The translations under genes were made by a program, and so were the position numbers. The notes under the pieces were generated by a model, which did not search any database, was not told the origin of the DNA, and saw nothing but the letters and a program-made list of their open reading frames with translations. A stretch of DNA of 38,743 nucleotides. Source: Candidatus Woesearchaeota archaeon. GTDB lineage: Archaea; Nanobdellota; Nanobdellia; Pacearchaeales; GW2011-AR1. Shown one piece after another: positions 4,582 to 27,620 of the stretch. Each line of letters opens with the position of its first letter. Within the stretch, counting starts at the first letter, position 1. The stretch is from assembly GCA_964429545.1 (NCBI GenBank), contig CAYSCL010000002.1, positions 1 through 38,743 of the forward strand. Direction: 5' to 3'.

Positions 4582-5502
4582 CTAAACCTTAATCTTACCT
4601 TCCTGCCAATCCTTCAAAATATCTCTCGCTGCTTGATCTTCATTAACTTCTCCACCTTTCTTCAAAAAACCTTTTTCCCGTCCAACAAATTCAATCAATT
4701 CTTCCGAATCTTCACAATCACAATCATAAAATTCATTCAAAACATCAGAATATTTTGTCATCAATCCATGAACAACCATTTCTGGATCCTTAACCTGCGT
4801 CCAACTTTTACCTCCAGCAAGAGTATGATGAGCAATTTTTTCTTTGTCAACCATTGAATATTGATTTTCAGGAATCACACCAGGTGAATCTACAAGAACT
4901 ATATCTTCAGATAACCTAACCTTTTGTACATTCCTAGTAAAACCAGCTTCTGCACCAACTCCTGCAGCACTTTTTCCAGACAAAATATTCAATAAAGAAC
5001 TCTTTCCGGTATTAGGATATCCAATAACGCCAACTTTCACTTTCTCTCCTTTTCCAACAACAACTCTATCCTTCAAAATTTCTCTTTTCTCTCTTTTTTC
5101 AATATTTTTTGCAATTCTTTTAATCAAATCACGCAAATCTTTAATTCCTTTTCTTTTAACACAAGAAACAAGAGCATAAGGATAAACTGTTCCTTTAATT
5201 TCATTCAACTTAGAAACCTTAATCAAATCGACTTTATTCAAAACATAAATAATTTTCTTGCCCTGTTTTTCAATTTCCTTTTCCAATTCTTTATTCCTAG
5301 TTTCTTCAACAAACCTTGCATCCAAAACTTCCAAAATAATGTCCGAAGTATTCACTATGTTTTTTGCAACCTCTGGATATTTAACCCGCTGCTTCTTAAT
5401 TTTATCTATATGCCTCGTTCTATGGGAGGAATATTTGTATTGTACCATAAAAACAAAAAGAAATTCCAGTTTAATAGTCTTTTTGATAAAAAATAATTTC
5501 AT
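4582..5502 (-). CDS. circularly permuted GTPase (YlqF/RbgA/Nug-like ribosome-biogenesis GTPase)
   Basis: The G4 motif NKVDL precedes G1 GYPNTGKSS and G3 DSPG, which is the permuted order typical of this family. The first ATG is at 5502. An alternative start MVQYKY at 5448 is equally plausible. Confidence 0.75.
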   Translation of the reverse strand: MKLFFIKKTIKLEFLFVFMVQYKYSSHRTRHIDKIKKQRVKYPEVAKNIVNTSDIILEVLDARFVEETRNKELEKEIEKQGKKIIYVLNKVDLIKVSKLNEIKGTVYPYALVSCVKRKGIKDLRDLIKRIAKNIEKREKREILKDRVVVGKGEKVKVGVIGYPNTGKSSLLNILSGKSAAGVGAEAGFTRNVQKVRLSEDIVLVDSPGVIPENQYSMVDKEKIAHHTLAGGKSWTQVKDPEMVVHGLMTKYSDVLNEFYDCDCEDSEELIEFVGREKGFLKKGGEVNEDQAARDILKDWQEGKIKV

Positions 5503-19185: not shown

Positions 19186-20010
19186 CTATTTTCTACCAAA
19201 CAATCTCTTCAACCAACTCTTGCCCAAAACTTCAAAATCAATTCTCAATCTAACTTTATACGGCGCAATTTCTCCAGCATCTTTTACTTTCAAAATTTTA
19301 ATCTTCTTTCCAGCTTTCTTAGCTTCTTTTTTAACCTTCTCAACAATTAATCCCTTATCTTCAATTTTACAAAAATCATAATAATAAATTCTTGTCCCAG
19401 ATTTGACAAACATAAAAGCCTCTTTCAAAAAAGTATCTTCTAACTGAGGTCTAGCCATAACAATAACATCGAAATTTTTCCCTTCTTTCACAAGTTTCGG
19501 AGCAACCTTCTTTATATCTCCGGGAACCAAAATAACTTTCTCTTCAACTTTGTTTCGAGAAATATTTTCTTTCGCATACTCATTTGCTTTCCGATTCAAT
19601 TCATTAGAATAAACAACTTTGGCATTTGTATTTTTAGCAATAACAATAGAAAAAGGAGCAACACCAGCACACATAACTAAAACTTCATCCCCTTTCTTAA
19701 TCATCTCAGAAACTTCTTTTCTCTCATTACTCAACCTTGGAGAAAAATATGTGTCATCAATATTAAACCTGAACTCGCAACCATTCTCTTTATACAAAAC
19801 TTCCTTATTTTTAACACCCGCCAAATGCTTAGTAGTTTGTTTTCTGAGCCTTCCACTAAATTTATGAGCTTTCTCAACAACCGTTTTCAAATTATTATGT
19901 TCTTTCAAAAGTTTCTTCGCAAAAACCTTCTTATCTTTTTCATTTGTATCAAATGGAAAATTCACAATTGCAACATCGCCTAATACACTAAAAGATCTTT
20001 GTTTTGTCAT
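19186..20010 (-). CDS. trm5: Trm5/Taw2 (Met-10+) family tRNA methyltransferase
   Basis: SAM-binding VLVMCAGVAPFSIVIAK followed by VYSNELN and GDIKK, with an N-terminal D2-like domain. The layout is typical of archaeal Trm5/Taw enzymes. Confidence 0.7.
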   Translation of the reverse strand: MTKQRSFSVLGDVAIVNFPFDTNEKDKKVFAKKLLKEHNNLKTVVEKAHKFSGRLRKQTTKHLAGVKNKEVLYKENGCEFRFNIDDTYFSPRLSNERKEVSEMIKKGDEVLVMCAGVAPFSIVIAKNTNAKVVYSNELNRKANEYAKENISRNKVEEKVILVPGDIKKVAPKLVKEGKNFDVIVMARPQLEDTFLKEAFMFVKSGTRIYYYDFCKIEDKGLIVEKVKKEAKKAGKKIKILKVKDAGEIAPYKVRLRIDFEVLGKSWLKRLFGRK

Positions 20011-24109: not shown

Positions 24110-27100
24110 CTAACCAAACAACCCAACAAACCAATCCCAAATCCTTCTAAAAAATCCTTTTTTCTCCTCATCCAAATCTCCAACACCTAATCCCAAATCT
24201 CCATCTTCCACTTTTGCTTCTTCCTGAACAGCAGGAACCTTCTCATAAATCTCAGTAATAACTAAATCAGCAAAATTCCCAGTCGAACCAGAATAACCAA
24301 TTTCATAATCATAAAATCCATCCTGATCAATATCAATTTTCTCAGACTTTCCAAGTTCAACAATAACTTCACTAGAATCAAAACTCAAACTAACCTTCGA
24401 AGAATCAAACTCCCCAATCTTCAATTCCCTTTCCCCCAACTTCAAAACATGCCCCTTAGGAAATCCCCGATTAACAACTCCATTTGTAAAAATCAAATTA
24501 GTCGAACCCCCAGTCGAACCCCCAGTAGAAGCCTCAGGAAAATCAACAATTAAATTTCTCAAACTCCTAACCCATCCAAAACCATCCTGAACAAAAACCC
24601 CATAACGATAAGTCGCCTCAGCCAAATCACTAAACGACGTCGTAAAACTCCATGATGTCTCATTCAACTTCTCAAGATTTGACTTGTAAATGAATTCTAT
24701 CTCAGAATCAGACAATGAACGATTCCACATCATTAAGTCGTCAATATCTCCATTATAATTCTTTCCTAAAATAATATTTTCTAATGCAGTAGATAAAGTA
24801 AACCCAGGAGGATTAAAAGTTTCAGACAACTCCCCATTCACATAAATTTTTGCTTCCCTATCTTTGTAACTCAAAACAATATTATTATATTCAGAATCCA
24901 AATCAATTCCTCTAAATCCATTATTCACTAAAACATTTGAATTACCTTCAAAAGTAAAACCGATATCAAAAGAATTTGCATTTTTTCCAATTAACCTTCC
25001 CTTGTAAATATTTTTAGTAGGAATTTTTGAATTAAAATTAGAAAATGCCTGTTGTCCATATACGTTGTATCCCCATGAAACAACACGTCCATCAGTTAAA
25101 ACGCCAAAAATAAATGTGCCCCCGATATTAATAGAATTAAAAAGTTCATTAATTTTAACTAAATTTGGTATATATTTATTCACTTCCGTTCCATCTCCTA
25201 ATTGCCCATAAATATTATATCCCCAACAGAGTACAGTTCCATTTTGTAAAAGACCACAAGTATAAGCGATTCCCAAATCAATTATAGAAAAATTATAATT
25301 TCCATAGACAGGAGTTGGAATATGTTTTTCAGTTGTTGTGTTATCTCCCAGCTGTCCAACAGCATTAGCTCCCCAACATAAAGCAGTTCCATTTTGTAAA
25401 AGGCCACAAGAATGTGTAGCTCCTAAAGAAAGATTTAAAAAACTATAATTTCCATAGACAGGAGTTGGAATTTCTTTTTGAATAATTGTATTATCTCCTA
25501 ATTTTCCAACCCCATTATTTCCCCAGCATAAAGCAGTTCCATTTTGCAAAAGACCACAAGAAAAACTAGTTCCAAGCTTAATTGTAGAAAAATTATAATT
25601 TCCATAAACTAGAGTTGGAATATGTTTTTCAGTTGTTGTGTTATCTCCTAATTGACCATTAATATTTTTCCCCCAACATAAAGCAGTTCCATTTTGTAAA
25701 AGACCACAAGTATGATATTTTCCAACAGCTAATTTGATAAAAATATAATCTCCATAAACAGATATTGGAATATGTCTTTCAGTTGTTGTATTATCTCCTA
25801 ATTGGCCATTTGTATTATCTCCCCAACACATAGCTGAACCATTTTGCAATAAACTACAAATATGATTTGAACCTAATTTAATTGAGGAAAAATTATAATT
25901 TCCATAAACATAAGTGGGAGTTAATTTATTTTCTGTAGTATTATCTCCTAATTGGCCATAAGTGTTATCTCCCCAACACATAGCTGAACCATTTTGTAAA
26001 AGACCACATGAAAAATATGCACCACAATAAATTGAAGAATAAGAATTTTCAGAAATATTTCCATAAGAAAATAAAATAGGTAATGAAAAAAAATCTGAAA
26101 TTTCCCCTTTTCCCAAAACCCCCCATCTTGTATTTCCCCAAGAAATTAATTCATCATTTTTTAAAATTGCTAAAGTGGAAGAATATCCTGTTGAAATAGA
26201 AGAAAAATTATAATCTCCATAAGAAAAAGTGGGCGCTTTTTTAATTTCAGTAGTCCCATCACCAATCTCTCCATAAAAATTATATCCCCAACCAACAACA
26301 GAACCATTTGTTAAAATGCCTAAATAACCCCAATAATAAGGAGACAAATCAGAATAAGTATAATTATGAGAAACATAAGCAGGAGTCCAATGATTAATTC
26401 CATCACCAGTTCCAAGACCTCCCAAATCATCTGTTGAACCACCACTCGCCTGACTCCCCCAACACATAGCAAGACCATTCTGCAATATCCCACAAACCTT
26501 TTCATTACCCGCAATTATTTTTGAAAAATTATGATTACCAGCAACAAAAGTAGGAATATATTTAGTTTCGTTTGTCCCGTCTCCAACTTGCCCATTCTCA
26601 TTTCTTCCCCAACATAAAGCTGTTCCATTAACCAATAATCCACATTGTTCAGCATCTCCCGTACTCAAAGAAGAAAAATTATAACTTCCATAAACCGGGG
26701 TTGGAACATGTCTTTCAGTTGTAGTGTTATCTCCAACTTGTCCAATATCATTTCTTCCCCAACATAAAGCTGTTCCATTAACCAATAATCCACAAGTATT
26801 ATATCTTCCACAATAAAGATTAGAAAAATTATAATTGCCAGAAATAGGAACAGGAGAAGTCCTTTGAGTTGTTGTCCCGTCCCCTAACCTTCCATTTGCA
26901 TTATTTCCCCAACAATATCCTGTACCATTTTCTAAAAGACCACAAATATGAATACTATCAGAATAATCTTCACGACAAAAAGAATCAAATTCATAATTCT
27001 CCAAAGTTCTCTTAAAAATAGAACTAGAATCAGTTGTCCCCTCTCCAAACTGCCCATAATCATTATTCCCAACACAATAAATTTCTCCAGATTCAAGAAT

Positions 27101-27589
27101 CATACAAGCTGTATATCCAAAAACAGAAATTTCTTTTGGAATTTTTTTCTCCCCCTTCTTAACCCACAAACTAATCGTAAACTCATCAACATTAAAATCT
27201 TCATGTGCAGAAATATTAATTCCTTCACCTTCACTAAAACTATAAGCACCATTATACTTCCCAGAACTAACAGCAGAAGCACCTCCCAAAACCGAACCAT
27301 TGTGACCATAACGACTCAAATCCCGAACCAAAGAATCACTTTCACCCAAATCAGAATTATTATTAAAATCCATCATCAAAATCAAATCCTCGTCATAAAC
27401 ACTATAATTAGAAGCGCCCCAATTAAAAACAAAATCCAACAATCCAGTCACATTAAAAAAATTCAAACTCACTCCAACCGAATCACTCTCAGTAGAACCC
27501 GAAGGAGAATTAAAACTAAACGAAACAGCCCCAACAAAAAACAAACTAAACACTAACAACAAACCAATAAAAACTCCTCTCTTTTTCAT
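24110..27589 (-). CDS. large secreted surface protein: 14 RCC1-like beta-propeller repeats flanked by LamG (concanavalin-like) segments, 1159 aa
   Basis: Signal peptide/anchor MKKRGVFIGLLLVFSLFFVGAVS. There are 14 copies of the C[WV]G-N--GQLGD-T repeat at about 50-aa spacing. LamG-type motifs occur before (DEFTISLWVK) and after (AKIYVNGEL ... GDIDDLMMWNRSLSDSEIEFIY) the repeats. N-x-S/T sequons are dense. The track start 27634 is GTG. ATG 27589 sits 26 nt downstream of a TATA box. Confidence 0.8.
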   Translation of the reverse strand: MKKRGVFIGLLLVFSLFFVGAVSFSFNSPSGSTESDSVGVSLNFFNVTGLLDFVFNWGASNYSVYDEDLILMMDFNNNSDLGESDSLVRDLSRYGHNGSVLGGASAVSSGKYNGAYSFSEGEGINISAHEDFNVDEFTISLWVKKGEKKIPKEISVFGYTACMILESGEIYCVGNNDYGQFGEGTTDSSSIFKRTLENYEFDSFCREDYSDSIHICGLLENGTGYCWGNNANGRLGDGTTTQRTSPVPISGNYNFSNLYCGRYNTCGLLVNGTALCWGRNDIGQVGDNTTTERHVPTPVYGSYNFSSLSTGDAEQCGLLVNGTALCWGRNENGQVGDGTNETKYIPTFVAGNHNFSKIIAGNEKVCGILQNGLAMCWGSQASGGSTDDLGGLGTGDGINHWTPAYVSHNYTYSDLSPYYWGYLGILTNGSVVGWGYNFYGEIGDGTTEIKKAPTFSYGDYNFSSISTGYSSTLAILKNDELISWGNTRWGVLGKGEISDFFSLPILFSYGNISENSYSSIYCGAYFSCGLLQNGSAMCWGDNTYGQLGDNTTENKLTPTYVYGNYNFSSIKLGSNHICSLLQNGSAMCWGDNTNGQLGDNTTTERHIPISVYGDYIFIKLAVGKYHTCGLLQNGTALCWGKNINGQLGDNTTTEKHIPTLVYGNYNFSTIKLGTSFSCGLLQNGTALCWGNNGVGKLGDNTIIQKEIPTPVYGNYSFLNLSLGATHSCGLLQNGTALCWGANAVGQLGDNTTTEKHIPTPVYGNYNFSIIDLGIAYTCGLLQNGTVLCWGYNIYGQLGDGTEVNKYIPNLVKINELFNSINIGGTFIFGVLTDGRVVSWGYNVYGQQAFSNFNSKIPTKNIYKGRLIGKNANSFDIGFTFEGNSNVLVNNGFRGIDLDSEYNNIVLSYKDREAKIYVNGELSETFNPPGFTLSTALENIILGKNYNGDIDDLMMWNRSLSDSEIEFIYKSNLEKLNETSWSFTTSFSDLAEATYRYGVFVQDGFGWVRSLRNLIVDFPEASTGGSTGGSTNLIFTNGVVNRGFPKGHVLKLGERELKIGEFDSSKVSLSFDSSEVIVELGKSEKIDIDQDGFYDYEIGYSGSTGNFADLVITEIYEKVPAVQEEAKVEDGDLGLGVGDLDEEKKGFFRRIWDWFVGLFG

Positions 27590-27610: not shown

Positions 27611-27620
27611 CTTATAAACT
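27611..27620 (-). promoter_or_regulatory. TATA box for the RCC1/LamG gene (agtttataag on the minus strand)
   Basis: It lies 26 nt upstream of ATG 27589. Confidence 0.4.

Follow-up and report, generated by a model that had tools for sequence, protein, structure and literature searches.

RCC1-like domains (RLDs), such as those of RCC1, UVR8, RPGR and HERC1/HERC2, are seven-bladed propellers that act as protein-binding platforms, and BLIP-II, a secreted bacterial propeller of the RCC1 type, inhibits beta-lactamases. LamG-like domains of the Pfam family Laminin_G_3 (PF13385) are found in an extracellular, carbohydrate-related setting, as in the C-terminal domain of an arabinanase (PDB 5HON/5HO0) and in an S-layer (surface-layer) domain-containing protein (PDB 4QVS). 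Modules of both kinds are combined in P0001, a gene on the minus strand of contig CAYSCL010000002.1 (positions 1 to 38,743, referred to below as the window) from a Candidatus Woesearchaeota archaeon (assembly GCA_964429545.1). In its predicted product, two tandem propellers of the RCC1 type are set into one hairpin of a LamG domain, which is thereby interrupted by 715 residues, whereas the solved relatives found are all contiguous.

The propellers of P0001 share with the known RLDs the seven blades, the RCC1 repeat signature and the fold (template-modelling, TM, score ~0.8). They differ from them in being archaeal, predicted to be extracellular, present as a tandem pair, and furnished with a Cys pair and conserved N-glycosylation sequons in their blades; moreover, they bear no relation to the Ran guanine-nucleotide-exchange function of RCC1. 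By profile, the LamG domain belongs to the same family as the solved LamG-like domains, and its setting resembles theirs. Split-domain designs are known from large adhesins, as in the split immunoglobulin-like domains of RTX adhesins, which loop a binding module out of a beta-sandwich hairpin and tie the ends of the insert together, as P0001 would also do; in P0001, however, a double RCC1 propeller is the guest of a LamG domain. The nesting is reversed in the Vibrio cholerae sialidase, a lectin domain being inserted into the propeller.

Surface proteins of a comparable kind occur in other DPANN archaea, the SPEARE-type proteins of Nanohaloarchaeota among them. Strain-specific LamG/ConA-like proteins are expanded in DPANN and have been proposed as host-attachment factors, those of nanohaloarchaea being rich in N-glycosylation sites (PMC7443923), and in Mia14 a link with type IV pilus loci is described for some LamG-like genes (PMC5498576). 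The P0001 family resembles the proteins of Mia14 (PMC5498576) and Ca. Nanohalobium (PMC7443923) in the kind of organism, the proposed role in attachment, the expansion of paralogs, the many sequons and the presence of some copies in type IV pilus loci, but neither propellers nested in LamG nor the re-assortment of frames and cassettes described below is reported in those two papers. An earlier note, made from the DNA sequence, had not recognized the nested architecture as one already described, and our searches agree: the searchable literature yielded no paper on RCC1 together with LamG in DPANN and none on a propeller inserted in a laminin-G fold. The parts, the domain-in-domain principle and the general kind of DPANN LamG surface glycoprotein are known; the RCC1-in-LamG nest and the re-assortment of frame and cassette are new.

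The split LamG domain and its propeller insert

P0001 is one unbroken open reading frame (ORF; window positions 24110-27589, minus strand) of 1159 codons from the ATG at 27589. When the whole protein was searched, the match to Laminin_G_3 was limited to profile positions 78-150 (residues 898-964, 43.0 bits; gathering score 27.6 bits). After splicing of residues 45-149 to residues 860-989, the match covered positions 4-150 and rose to 53.8 bits, compared with 37-43 bits for the C-terminal part alone. A profile of 20 such spliced family domains matched two solved domains in a single stretch across the splice, namely 5hon_A (query 39-189, E = 7e-9) and 4qvs_A (query 32-189, E = 9e-9), while the profile of the N-terminal half alone matched the opening strands of a jelly-roll subdomain of the ConA-like type in the PDB (E = 8e-4). 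When hidden Markov models (HMMs) were built from each half, their matches were separated by 25-60 residues in ordinary LamG domains from other DPANN, Thermoplasmata, Methanosarcinales and bacteria, versus ~715 residues, with 13-14 blades in between, in members of the family. The LamG is interrupted at about position 31/32 of the Pfam profile, in the hairpin that follows the ...FTISLWVK strand.

On the strength of these profiles, the two LamG pieces of P0001 are one domain interrupted by a 715-residue insert. The earlier proposals that the first half of a LamG precedes the blades (the N-terminal part ends ...DEFTISLWVKK), and that a single split LamG, not two separate domains, encloses the propeller pair, were thus both upheld, the spliced matches and the spacing of the half-HMMs being in agreement. 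An illusory split, with an unrelated small domain at the N-terminus and only a truncated LamG after the propellers, is barely credible: the N-terminal piece alone lacks a Pfam match, but the spliced match spans positions 4-150 and outscores the C-terminal part, the half-HMMs adjoin in contiguous relatives, the spliced profile runs through the splice into solved domains, the N-half profile finds the opening strands of a ConA-like jelly-roll, and either piece has too few strands for a sandwich. For annotation, the lesson is that profile searches show the C-terminal Laminin_G_3 fragment only, such that nested LamG domains of this kind are missed in databases.

The insert itself was matched by WD40_RLD (PF25390, E = 5e-109), RCC1 (PF00415, E = 1.7e-72, 11 stretches) and RCC1_2 (PF13540, E = 4e-78, 13 stretches). 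A C-W-G motif recurs 14 times at a spacing of ~50 residues, and exactly 14 RCC1-type repeats, the number counted in the earlier note, were obtained from the motif, from Pfam and from the structural model. An AlphaFold2 model, for which the input alignment comprised 21 family members, had a mean predicted local distance difference test score (pLDDT) of 85.5 and a predicted TM score (pTM) of 0.76, with four strands per blade. Foldseek matches of the full model were dominated by the propellers; in the PDB they included UVR8, RPGR, the HERC1/HERC2 RLDs and RCC1, with E down to 5e-32 and a target TM score of ~0.8. The 14 four-stranded blades, together with these RCC1-type matches, indicate two seven-bladed propellers of the RCC1 type.

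The LamG parts comprise six strands (66-147) and nine strands (862-972) in the model, with pLDDT of 70-93 in both. A pTM of 0.76 over 1159 residues suggests a single rigid body in which the propellers and the two LamG parts have fixed relative positions. The structure prediction called for by the earlier note gave a confident model with 6 + 9 strands, and the assembly of these strands into one jelly-roll is suggested by the pTM rather than read off the coordinates. Beyond the LamG domain, the model shows a flexible linker (1018-1028), a beta module (1029-1117) and, in the acidic end, disorder and a short helix. The features of the gene, from its 5' to its 3' end, are as follows.

27612-27618, minus strand: TATA-like box TTTATAA, 23-29 nt upstream of the ATG (upstream comparison, blastn)
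27521-27589, minus strand: predicted signal peptide, residues 1-23 (MKKRG / VFIGLLLVFSLFFVG / AVS), with the n-h-c layout of the family and a model helix at 3-18
27395-27520, minus strand: short N-terminal beta region, residues 24-65, with five predicted strands, preceding the LamG (model)
27149-27394, minus strand: LamG/ConA-like jelly-roll part 1, residues 66-147, six strands, ending ...DEFTISLWVKKGE; part of the constant frame (profiles, model)
26030-27148, minus strand: RCC1-like propeller 1, blades 1-7, residues 148-520 (Pfam, C-W-G motif, model, Foldseek)
25007-26029, minus strand: RCC1-like propeller 2, blades 8-14, residues 521-861, containing a pair of 32-mers (Pfam, model, Foldseek)
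24674-25006, minus strand: LamG jelly-roll part 2, residues 862-972, nine strands and a helix (Pfam, profiles, model)
24755-27154, minus strand: variable cassette, residues ~146-945, both propellers and the middle LamG strands (history in conflict with the frame on either side)
24539-24673, minus strand: post region, a four-stranded beta extension, residues 973-1017, also found 3' of contiguous LamG domains in relatives
24506-24538, minus strand: flexible STGGSTGGST linker, residues 1018-1028, encoded by a 12-nt tandem repeat (pLDDT < 50)
24236-24505, minus strand: all-beta tail module of ~90 residues with the motif KIDIDQDGFYDYEI (DxDxDG-like; profile searches, model)
24113-24235, minus strand: acidic linker, residues 1119-1143, and short amphipathic/hydrophobic end KKGFFRRIWDWFVGLFG (sequence, model)
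24110-24112, minus strand: stop codon

Blades 8-13 had previously been described as near-identical at the DNA level, and an exact 32-mer pair had been taken as a sign of recent homogenization or expansion. The 32-mer is indeed present without change at 25317 and 25617. However, the pairwise identity of these blades is 58-83% in DNA and 42-82% in protein, and blades 8-12 are simply the most canonical and the most alike; tools for tandem repeats and repeat families returned families of 150 and 300 nt that are 60-77% identical. Codon bias in P0001 is extreme, the chance of drawing two identical codons being 0.85-0.97 for F, N, C, Y, D and H. Among the canonical blades, positions with the same residue carried identical codons in 720 cases, compared with 625 expected from the codon bias of the gene, and the long exact words are accordingly explained mainly as conserved peptides (e.g., GDNTTTEKHIP) written in AT-biased codons.

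All 20 full-length relatives (36-53% identical) are collinear with P0001 through the 14 blades; repeat number does not vary among them, and a recent expansion is thus rejected. Blades 1-7, 13 and 14 show positional orthology with the relative P0003. With 58-83% blade identity, the codon counts given above and the collinearity of the relatives, the claim of recent homogenization does not hold for the blades in general. The best pair, b10/b12, shares 83% of its nucleotides and 85% of its amino acids in a BLASTP local alignment (82% over fixed 50-residue units), more than either shares with any other protein, and has identical codons at 34 of 41 positions against 24.9 expected. This hints at limited intragenic conversion, for this pair only.

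Paralogs, frames and cassettes

The genome that carries P0001 is a 0.79-Mb bin of 67 contigs (here denoted by C numbers; public contigs by L numbers), with ~30% G+C and 87% completeness. With a genome of ~0.8 Mb and relatives among Candidatus Woesearchaeota, Pacearchaeota or Nanoarchaeota, the organism is a DPANN archaeon, as surmised from the DNA alone. P0001 is flanked by polB and fen1. In contigs of the Logan collection from a marine-sediment metagenome (run X1), most of the gene was covered in short pieces with zero differences.

The organism has at least three RCC1-type nested copies and one copy with a PQQ propeller. P0002, the closest database relative, is encoded on public contig L045 (10001-13450), which is 99.94% identical over 9,967 nt to C16 of the bin, and C16 stops (at 19578) exactly where P0002 starts. 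P0002 is thus taken as a paralog from the same organism or population, missing from the bin owing to an assembly break at the 5' end that the two genes share; over the shared 5' segments, the contigs are 3-4 times as deep as the P0001 baseline. Window positions 27622-27153 are 91.7% identical to L045 (blastn). The 33 nt 5' of the ATG, TATA-like box included, are almost identical between P0001 and P0002, and the likeness ends further upstream; a GTG 15 codons upstream is an unlikely start because it lies beyond the box. A dispersed element of ~105 nt (73-91% identity) was also observed at L045:7870-7980 and on C1, C6, C14, C15, C23 and C32 of the same genome.

The third RCC1-type copy, P0038 on C23, has a transmembrane anchor. 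The fourth copy is split over C27:8875-9654 and C46:163-2661, which are read as one gene because an identical repeat stands at both contig ends. It carries the same signal peptide and LamG N-terminal part, a PQQ-type propeller (PF13570, E = 1e-62; PF13360) and, at its C-terminus, the last LamG strands, the same tail and the end FFRRIWDWFIGLFGK. Its spliced LamG matched Laminin_G_3 positions 18-151 at 39.3 bits (C-terminal part alone, 25.4 bits), and the insertion appears to be at a later loop, at about profile position 88/89. In L042:1109-4009 (Nanoarchaeota isolate DeMMO1_8), the LamG is broken at the same hairpin as in P0001, after ...DNFTISFWVKGK, and resumes at profile position 32; the insert of ~400 residues consists of seven Y-rich repeats of ~55 residues and has no Pfam match. 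As judged from its sequence, this is a different guest in the same LamG hairpin.

P0038 lies inside a type-IV-pilus-like cluster, found on C10, C23:1-13238 and C41 and on L046:1-13200. The cluster encodes a T2SSE ATPase, a membrane protein of ~720 amino acids, a Peptidase_A24 prepilin peptidase and at least six small pilin-like ORFs, in which ...K[KR]G is followed by ~20 hydrophobic residues. In a related genome, another family member, P0004, sits 4 kb further along.

The profile of the LamG N-half matched ORFs of 469-6117 residues in 39 of 151 genomes of the order, and the full RCC1-nested form was seen in ~20 database proteins. The N-half search for other cassettes on this frame gave essentially RCC1 members only, at that sensitivity.

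Comparison of the family members shows that they are built from parts that assort separately: a constant frame (signal peptide, outer LamG strands and post region), a variable cassette and an anchor module. Between P0001 and P0002, identity is 92-98% in residues 1-146 (signal peptide and LamG N-terminal part), falls to 31-48% in the blades and residues 866-940 (the cassette), and returns to 75-87% in residues 941-1118 (last LamG strands, post region and tail). In LamG part 2, residues 862 to ~945 go with the propellers, and the last strands (GDIDDLMMWNRSLSDSEIEFIY) belong to the frame. P0003, from another metagenome, presents the reverse relation to P0001, with 62-67% identity in blades 1-7 and 13-14 and 19-55% in the frame. 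The cassette of P0002 pairs with that of P0006 (70%, and 93% in residues 866-940). P0004 shares 80% identity with P0038 in the cassette and 82-87% with P0001 and P0002 in the frame. The contig that bears P0004 is syntenic with C10-C23-C41-C15 at 78-84% DNA identity. At the DNA level, the 5' part of P0004 is 79% like P0001, the centre 73.6% like P0038 and the 3' part 78% like P0001; on this sequence evidence, P0004 of the syntenic relative is clearly a chimera.

The frame and cassette trees, inferred by maximum likelihood, point the same way. In the frame tree, P0001, P0002, P0004, P0006 and P0007 form a clade with 98% support. In the cassette tree, P0004 groups with P0038 (100%) and P0002 with P0006 (100%), while P0001 and P0003 pair (92%) inside a trio with P0010 (99%). 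Approximately unbiased (AU) tests rejected the clades of each partition on the other (p = 2.9e-61, 2e-5 and 3e-4), the clades tested having been named after the identity tables had been seen. The mosaic borders, at residues ~146 and ~945, fall inside the most conserved LamG strands. Frames and cassettes have, on these conflicting histories of aligned sequences, been re-assorted by recombination.

Synonymous divergence (dS) between P0001 and P0002 is 0.04 in the signal-peptide region, 0.40 in the LamG N-terminal part and ~1 in the propellers. The low dS at the start of the gene, with the 33 shared upstream bases, indicates recent homogenization of the 5' end. In the last LamG strands dS is saturated and nonsynonymous divergence (dN) is 0.13, which indicates purifying selection. 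Cassettes of paralogs differ with dN of 0.5-0.7; dN/dS is 0.6-0.7 in the propellers and ~1.0 in residues 866-940. The cassettes are thus old and divergent. The earlier description of the protein as rapidly evolving is apt for the central cassette, the whole of which varies between paralogs, but not for the frame, which is conserved and partly homogenized.

Conserved ends around exchangeable centres are known from variable surface families such as Anaplasma Msp2 and Neisseria PilE/pilS. Like these, the P0001 family has conserved 5' and 3' frames around a divergent centre, several copies per genome and recombination at the borders. Unlike them, the copies seen here look complete and expressible rather than silent donors, with no promoterless cassettes among them. 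Nor is there any sign of programmed or frequent switching in Logan contigs of three sediment runs, which held the same sequence and paralog-derived joints and no clear variants; such contigs are fragmented by repeats and drop rare variants.

Export, glycosylation and the C-terminal end

The N-terminus of P0001 consists of a basic n-region, an h-region of 15 residues and a site made up of small residues, VGA-VS ([IV]SA-TP in relatives), and this layout, including [VI][SG]A, is conserved in 20 of 20 full-length relatives. The signal or anchor peptide reported earlier (MKKRG, VFIGLLLVFSLFFVG and AVS) is thus a conserved feature of the family, and is most likely, from its sequence, a Sec-type signal with a signal-peptidase-I site. 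The blades carry a Cys pair at i/i+10 on neighbouring strands: both residues are present in 265 of 294 blade-by-sequence cells, neither in 27 and only one in 2. In P0001, blades 1-5 each have the pair, and blades 6 and 7 lack it. Covariation of this kind is what a disulfide would leave, and it speaks for a location outside the cytoplasm. With the signal peptide, the covarying Cys pairs indicate that P0001 is exported.

Sequons (N-x-S/T) number 34 in P0001, versus 16.4 +/- 3.6 in shuffled sequences (maximum of 30 in 2000), and their density, 2.9 per 100 residues, compares with a median of 0.52 for the genome. Such high density is common to many exported proteins of the genome and not peculiar to P0001. 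From blade 1 to blade 14 the counts are 0, 2, 3, 3, 1, 2, 1, 3, 2, 3, 3, 3, 1 and 0; the two to three sequons formerly ascribed to nearly every repeat are therefore found in the nine canonical blades, whereas the others have none or one. In 21 alignment columns a sequon is held by at least 70% of the members, typically as NG[ST] of the A-B hairpin and NFS before strand D. N-glycosylation needs the oligosaccharyltransferase STT3/AglB, a homologue of which is encoded at C25:5712-6521 (885-aa ORF, 34.1 bits, above the Pfam cut-off). Of the proposed heavy glycosylation, the enrichment and conservation of sequons and the presence of STT3/AglB can be taken as established, and glycosylation itself as plausible and predicted; P0001 is a plausible N-glycoprotein.

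After the LamG domain, P0001 continues for 174 residues, including the STGGSTGGST linker and an acidic stretch. The tail motif, KIDLDxDGxYDLEI, is common to at least seven ORFs of the genome, most of them recognizably exported; the tail module is located at C3:15496-18102 (the end of an S8 protease), C28:4363-8853, C27:4759-8205 and C1:48877-49956, and also on C46 and C23. Runs of N (X in translation) were noted inside ORFs on C27 (~4800-4900) and C23 (~1600-1700), which limits the reading of two surface-protein genes. Modelled alone, the tail module is all-beta (pLDDT 77). It belongs to no Pfam family (weak, scattered matches, the best at E = 3e-4, in 2 of 10 members), had no sequence match in the PDB, and gave a best Foldseek match of E = 0.17. 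It is probably a shared envelope-attachment or stalk module.

In most family members the C-terminus consists of an acidic linker, a transmembrane helix and a Lys-rich tail. In P0001, P0002, P0004 and the PQQ copy, the C-terminus is instead KKGFFRRIWDWF(V/I)GLFG (window 24113-24160 in P0001), and an amphipathic end of a similar kind, FFQKILNLFQKLFNFIKRFRLF, is found in the S8 protease on C3. This end may serve as an in-plane membrane anchor or as a sorting signal. Truncation of the C-terminus by a frameshift was considered and rejected: the other frames past the stop lack a transmembrane helix with a Lys tail, and P0002, P0004 and the PQQ paralog share the FFRRIWDWF end. P0001 had no NCBIfam match of any kind, and thus none to a PGF-CTERM/archaeosortase signal. 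In the relative P0006, PGF_pre_PGF (TIGR04213, E = 2e-24) replaces the tail module.

Proposed function and alternative explanations

Taken together, the data favour, with moderate confidence, an exported, disulfide-stabilized and probably N-glycosylated surface protein with a nested propeller head, re-assorted cassettes and a role in attachment. We infer such a role, as an adhesin or in host recognition, for P0001. The LamG would form a rigid socket that joins the entry and exit of the propeller pair, and the C-terminal stalk or anchor would hold the pair away from the cell. The propeller faces would provide the ligand-binding surface that determines specificity, the most likely targets being glycoproteins or glycans of the host-cell envelope. 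Chimeras have arisen by recombination within the conserved LamG strands, and the repertoire of paralogs, together with the exchange of cassettes, may vary the targets of attachment.

Several points weigh against this reading. Physical contact between the two LamG parts is inferred from the model. Diversifying selection is not indicated in the propellers, where dN/dS does not exceed 1 and dS is saturated, and the clades of the AU tests were chosen after the fact. The N-half profile is absent from all 5 other species of the genus, and the family is therefore not essential to the lifestyle. There are no conserved operon partners, the neighbourhoods of P0001, P0002, P0003 and P0004 all being different, and a search for RNA runs returned DNA runs only. 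Finally, P0001 lacks the C-terminal transmembrane helix of most relatives, which bears on how it might be attached to the cell.

It is unlikely, although the idea keeps some weight, that P0001 is a structural coat or S-layer-type glycoprotein, whose head builds or shields the envelope and whose paralog variation evades viruses or predators. The sequon density shared by many exported proteins of the genome would suit such a coat, and a module for general attachment to the envelope would be expected to recur as the tail does, in at least seven ORFs including the S8 protease. Propeller domains are also on record for archaeal S-layer proteins (Jing et al. 2002, as cited in PMC5498576), and 4qvs_A, one of the two best solved LamG matches, is an S-layer domain-containing protein. 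However, the patchiness of the family (39 of 151 genomes of the order and 0 of 5 other species of the genus) would be unusual in a principal component of the wall, genomes carry several divergent paralogs each, and no lattice-forming domain was recognized.

An adhesin associated with a pilus is quite unlikely. Here the signal would be of the class III prepilin type, cut after KKRG, with the hydrophobic helix retained and the head in or at the tip of a type IV pilus-like fibre. In P0001 a run of 21 hydrophobic residues comes directly after KKRG, and the small pilin-like ORFs of the genome use K[KR]G alike, but the K/R-G motif is present in P0001, P0002, P0004, P0012, P0018 and P0022 and absent from P0003, P0008, P0009 and P0038, while all members keep the short h-region and a [VI][SG]A site of the kind that signal peptidase I typically cleaves. 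The frame-A proteins P0001, P0002 and P0004 have no C-terminal transmembrane anchor, which would be compatible with a pilin, whereas the transmembrane helix and Lys tail of most members are not. As for location, P0038 and the chimera P0004, which has the frame of P0001, are the only members placed in a pilus context, inside the cluster with its T2SSE ATPase and Peptidase_A24, and LamG genes of Mia14 are linked to pilus loci (PMC5498576); P0001 itself, between polB and fen1, is outside such a locus.

Little credence can be given to a released binding protein, such as a lectin, a polysaccharide scavenger or a BLIP-II-like inhibitor of foreign hydrolases. Most family members are anchored by a transmembrane helix, and although P0001 is not, its tail and amphipathic end resemble an attachment device common to other exoproteins. 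LamG/ConA-like domains often bind carbohydrate, and the best solved match is the LamG-like domain of an extracellular arabinanase, yet domain searches of P0001 revealed no catalytic or known inhibitor motif.

A more general role of the LamG domain may tentatively be suggested. It could be a general socket, in which two RCC1 propellers, a PQQ-type propeller or the unnamed seven-repeat propeller are accommodated, its outer strands acting as recombination handles for the exchange of propeller cassettes between paralogous frames and anchors. If this is true, a symbiont with a minimal genome would possess combinatorial, switchable attachment heads, with consequences for change of host range or evasion of viruses.

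DPANN archaea depend on contact with host cells, and to our knowledge no attachment molecule is known for lineages of the Woesearchaeota type. The P0001 family provides a concrete candidate for attachment, with a constant frame for export, scaffolding and anchoring and an exchangeable double-propeller head. Since the head is bounded by LamG strands, it represents a defined construct for expression. The re-assortment of frames and cassettes provides direct sequence evidence for the shuffling of surface heads among paralogs in minimal genomes.

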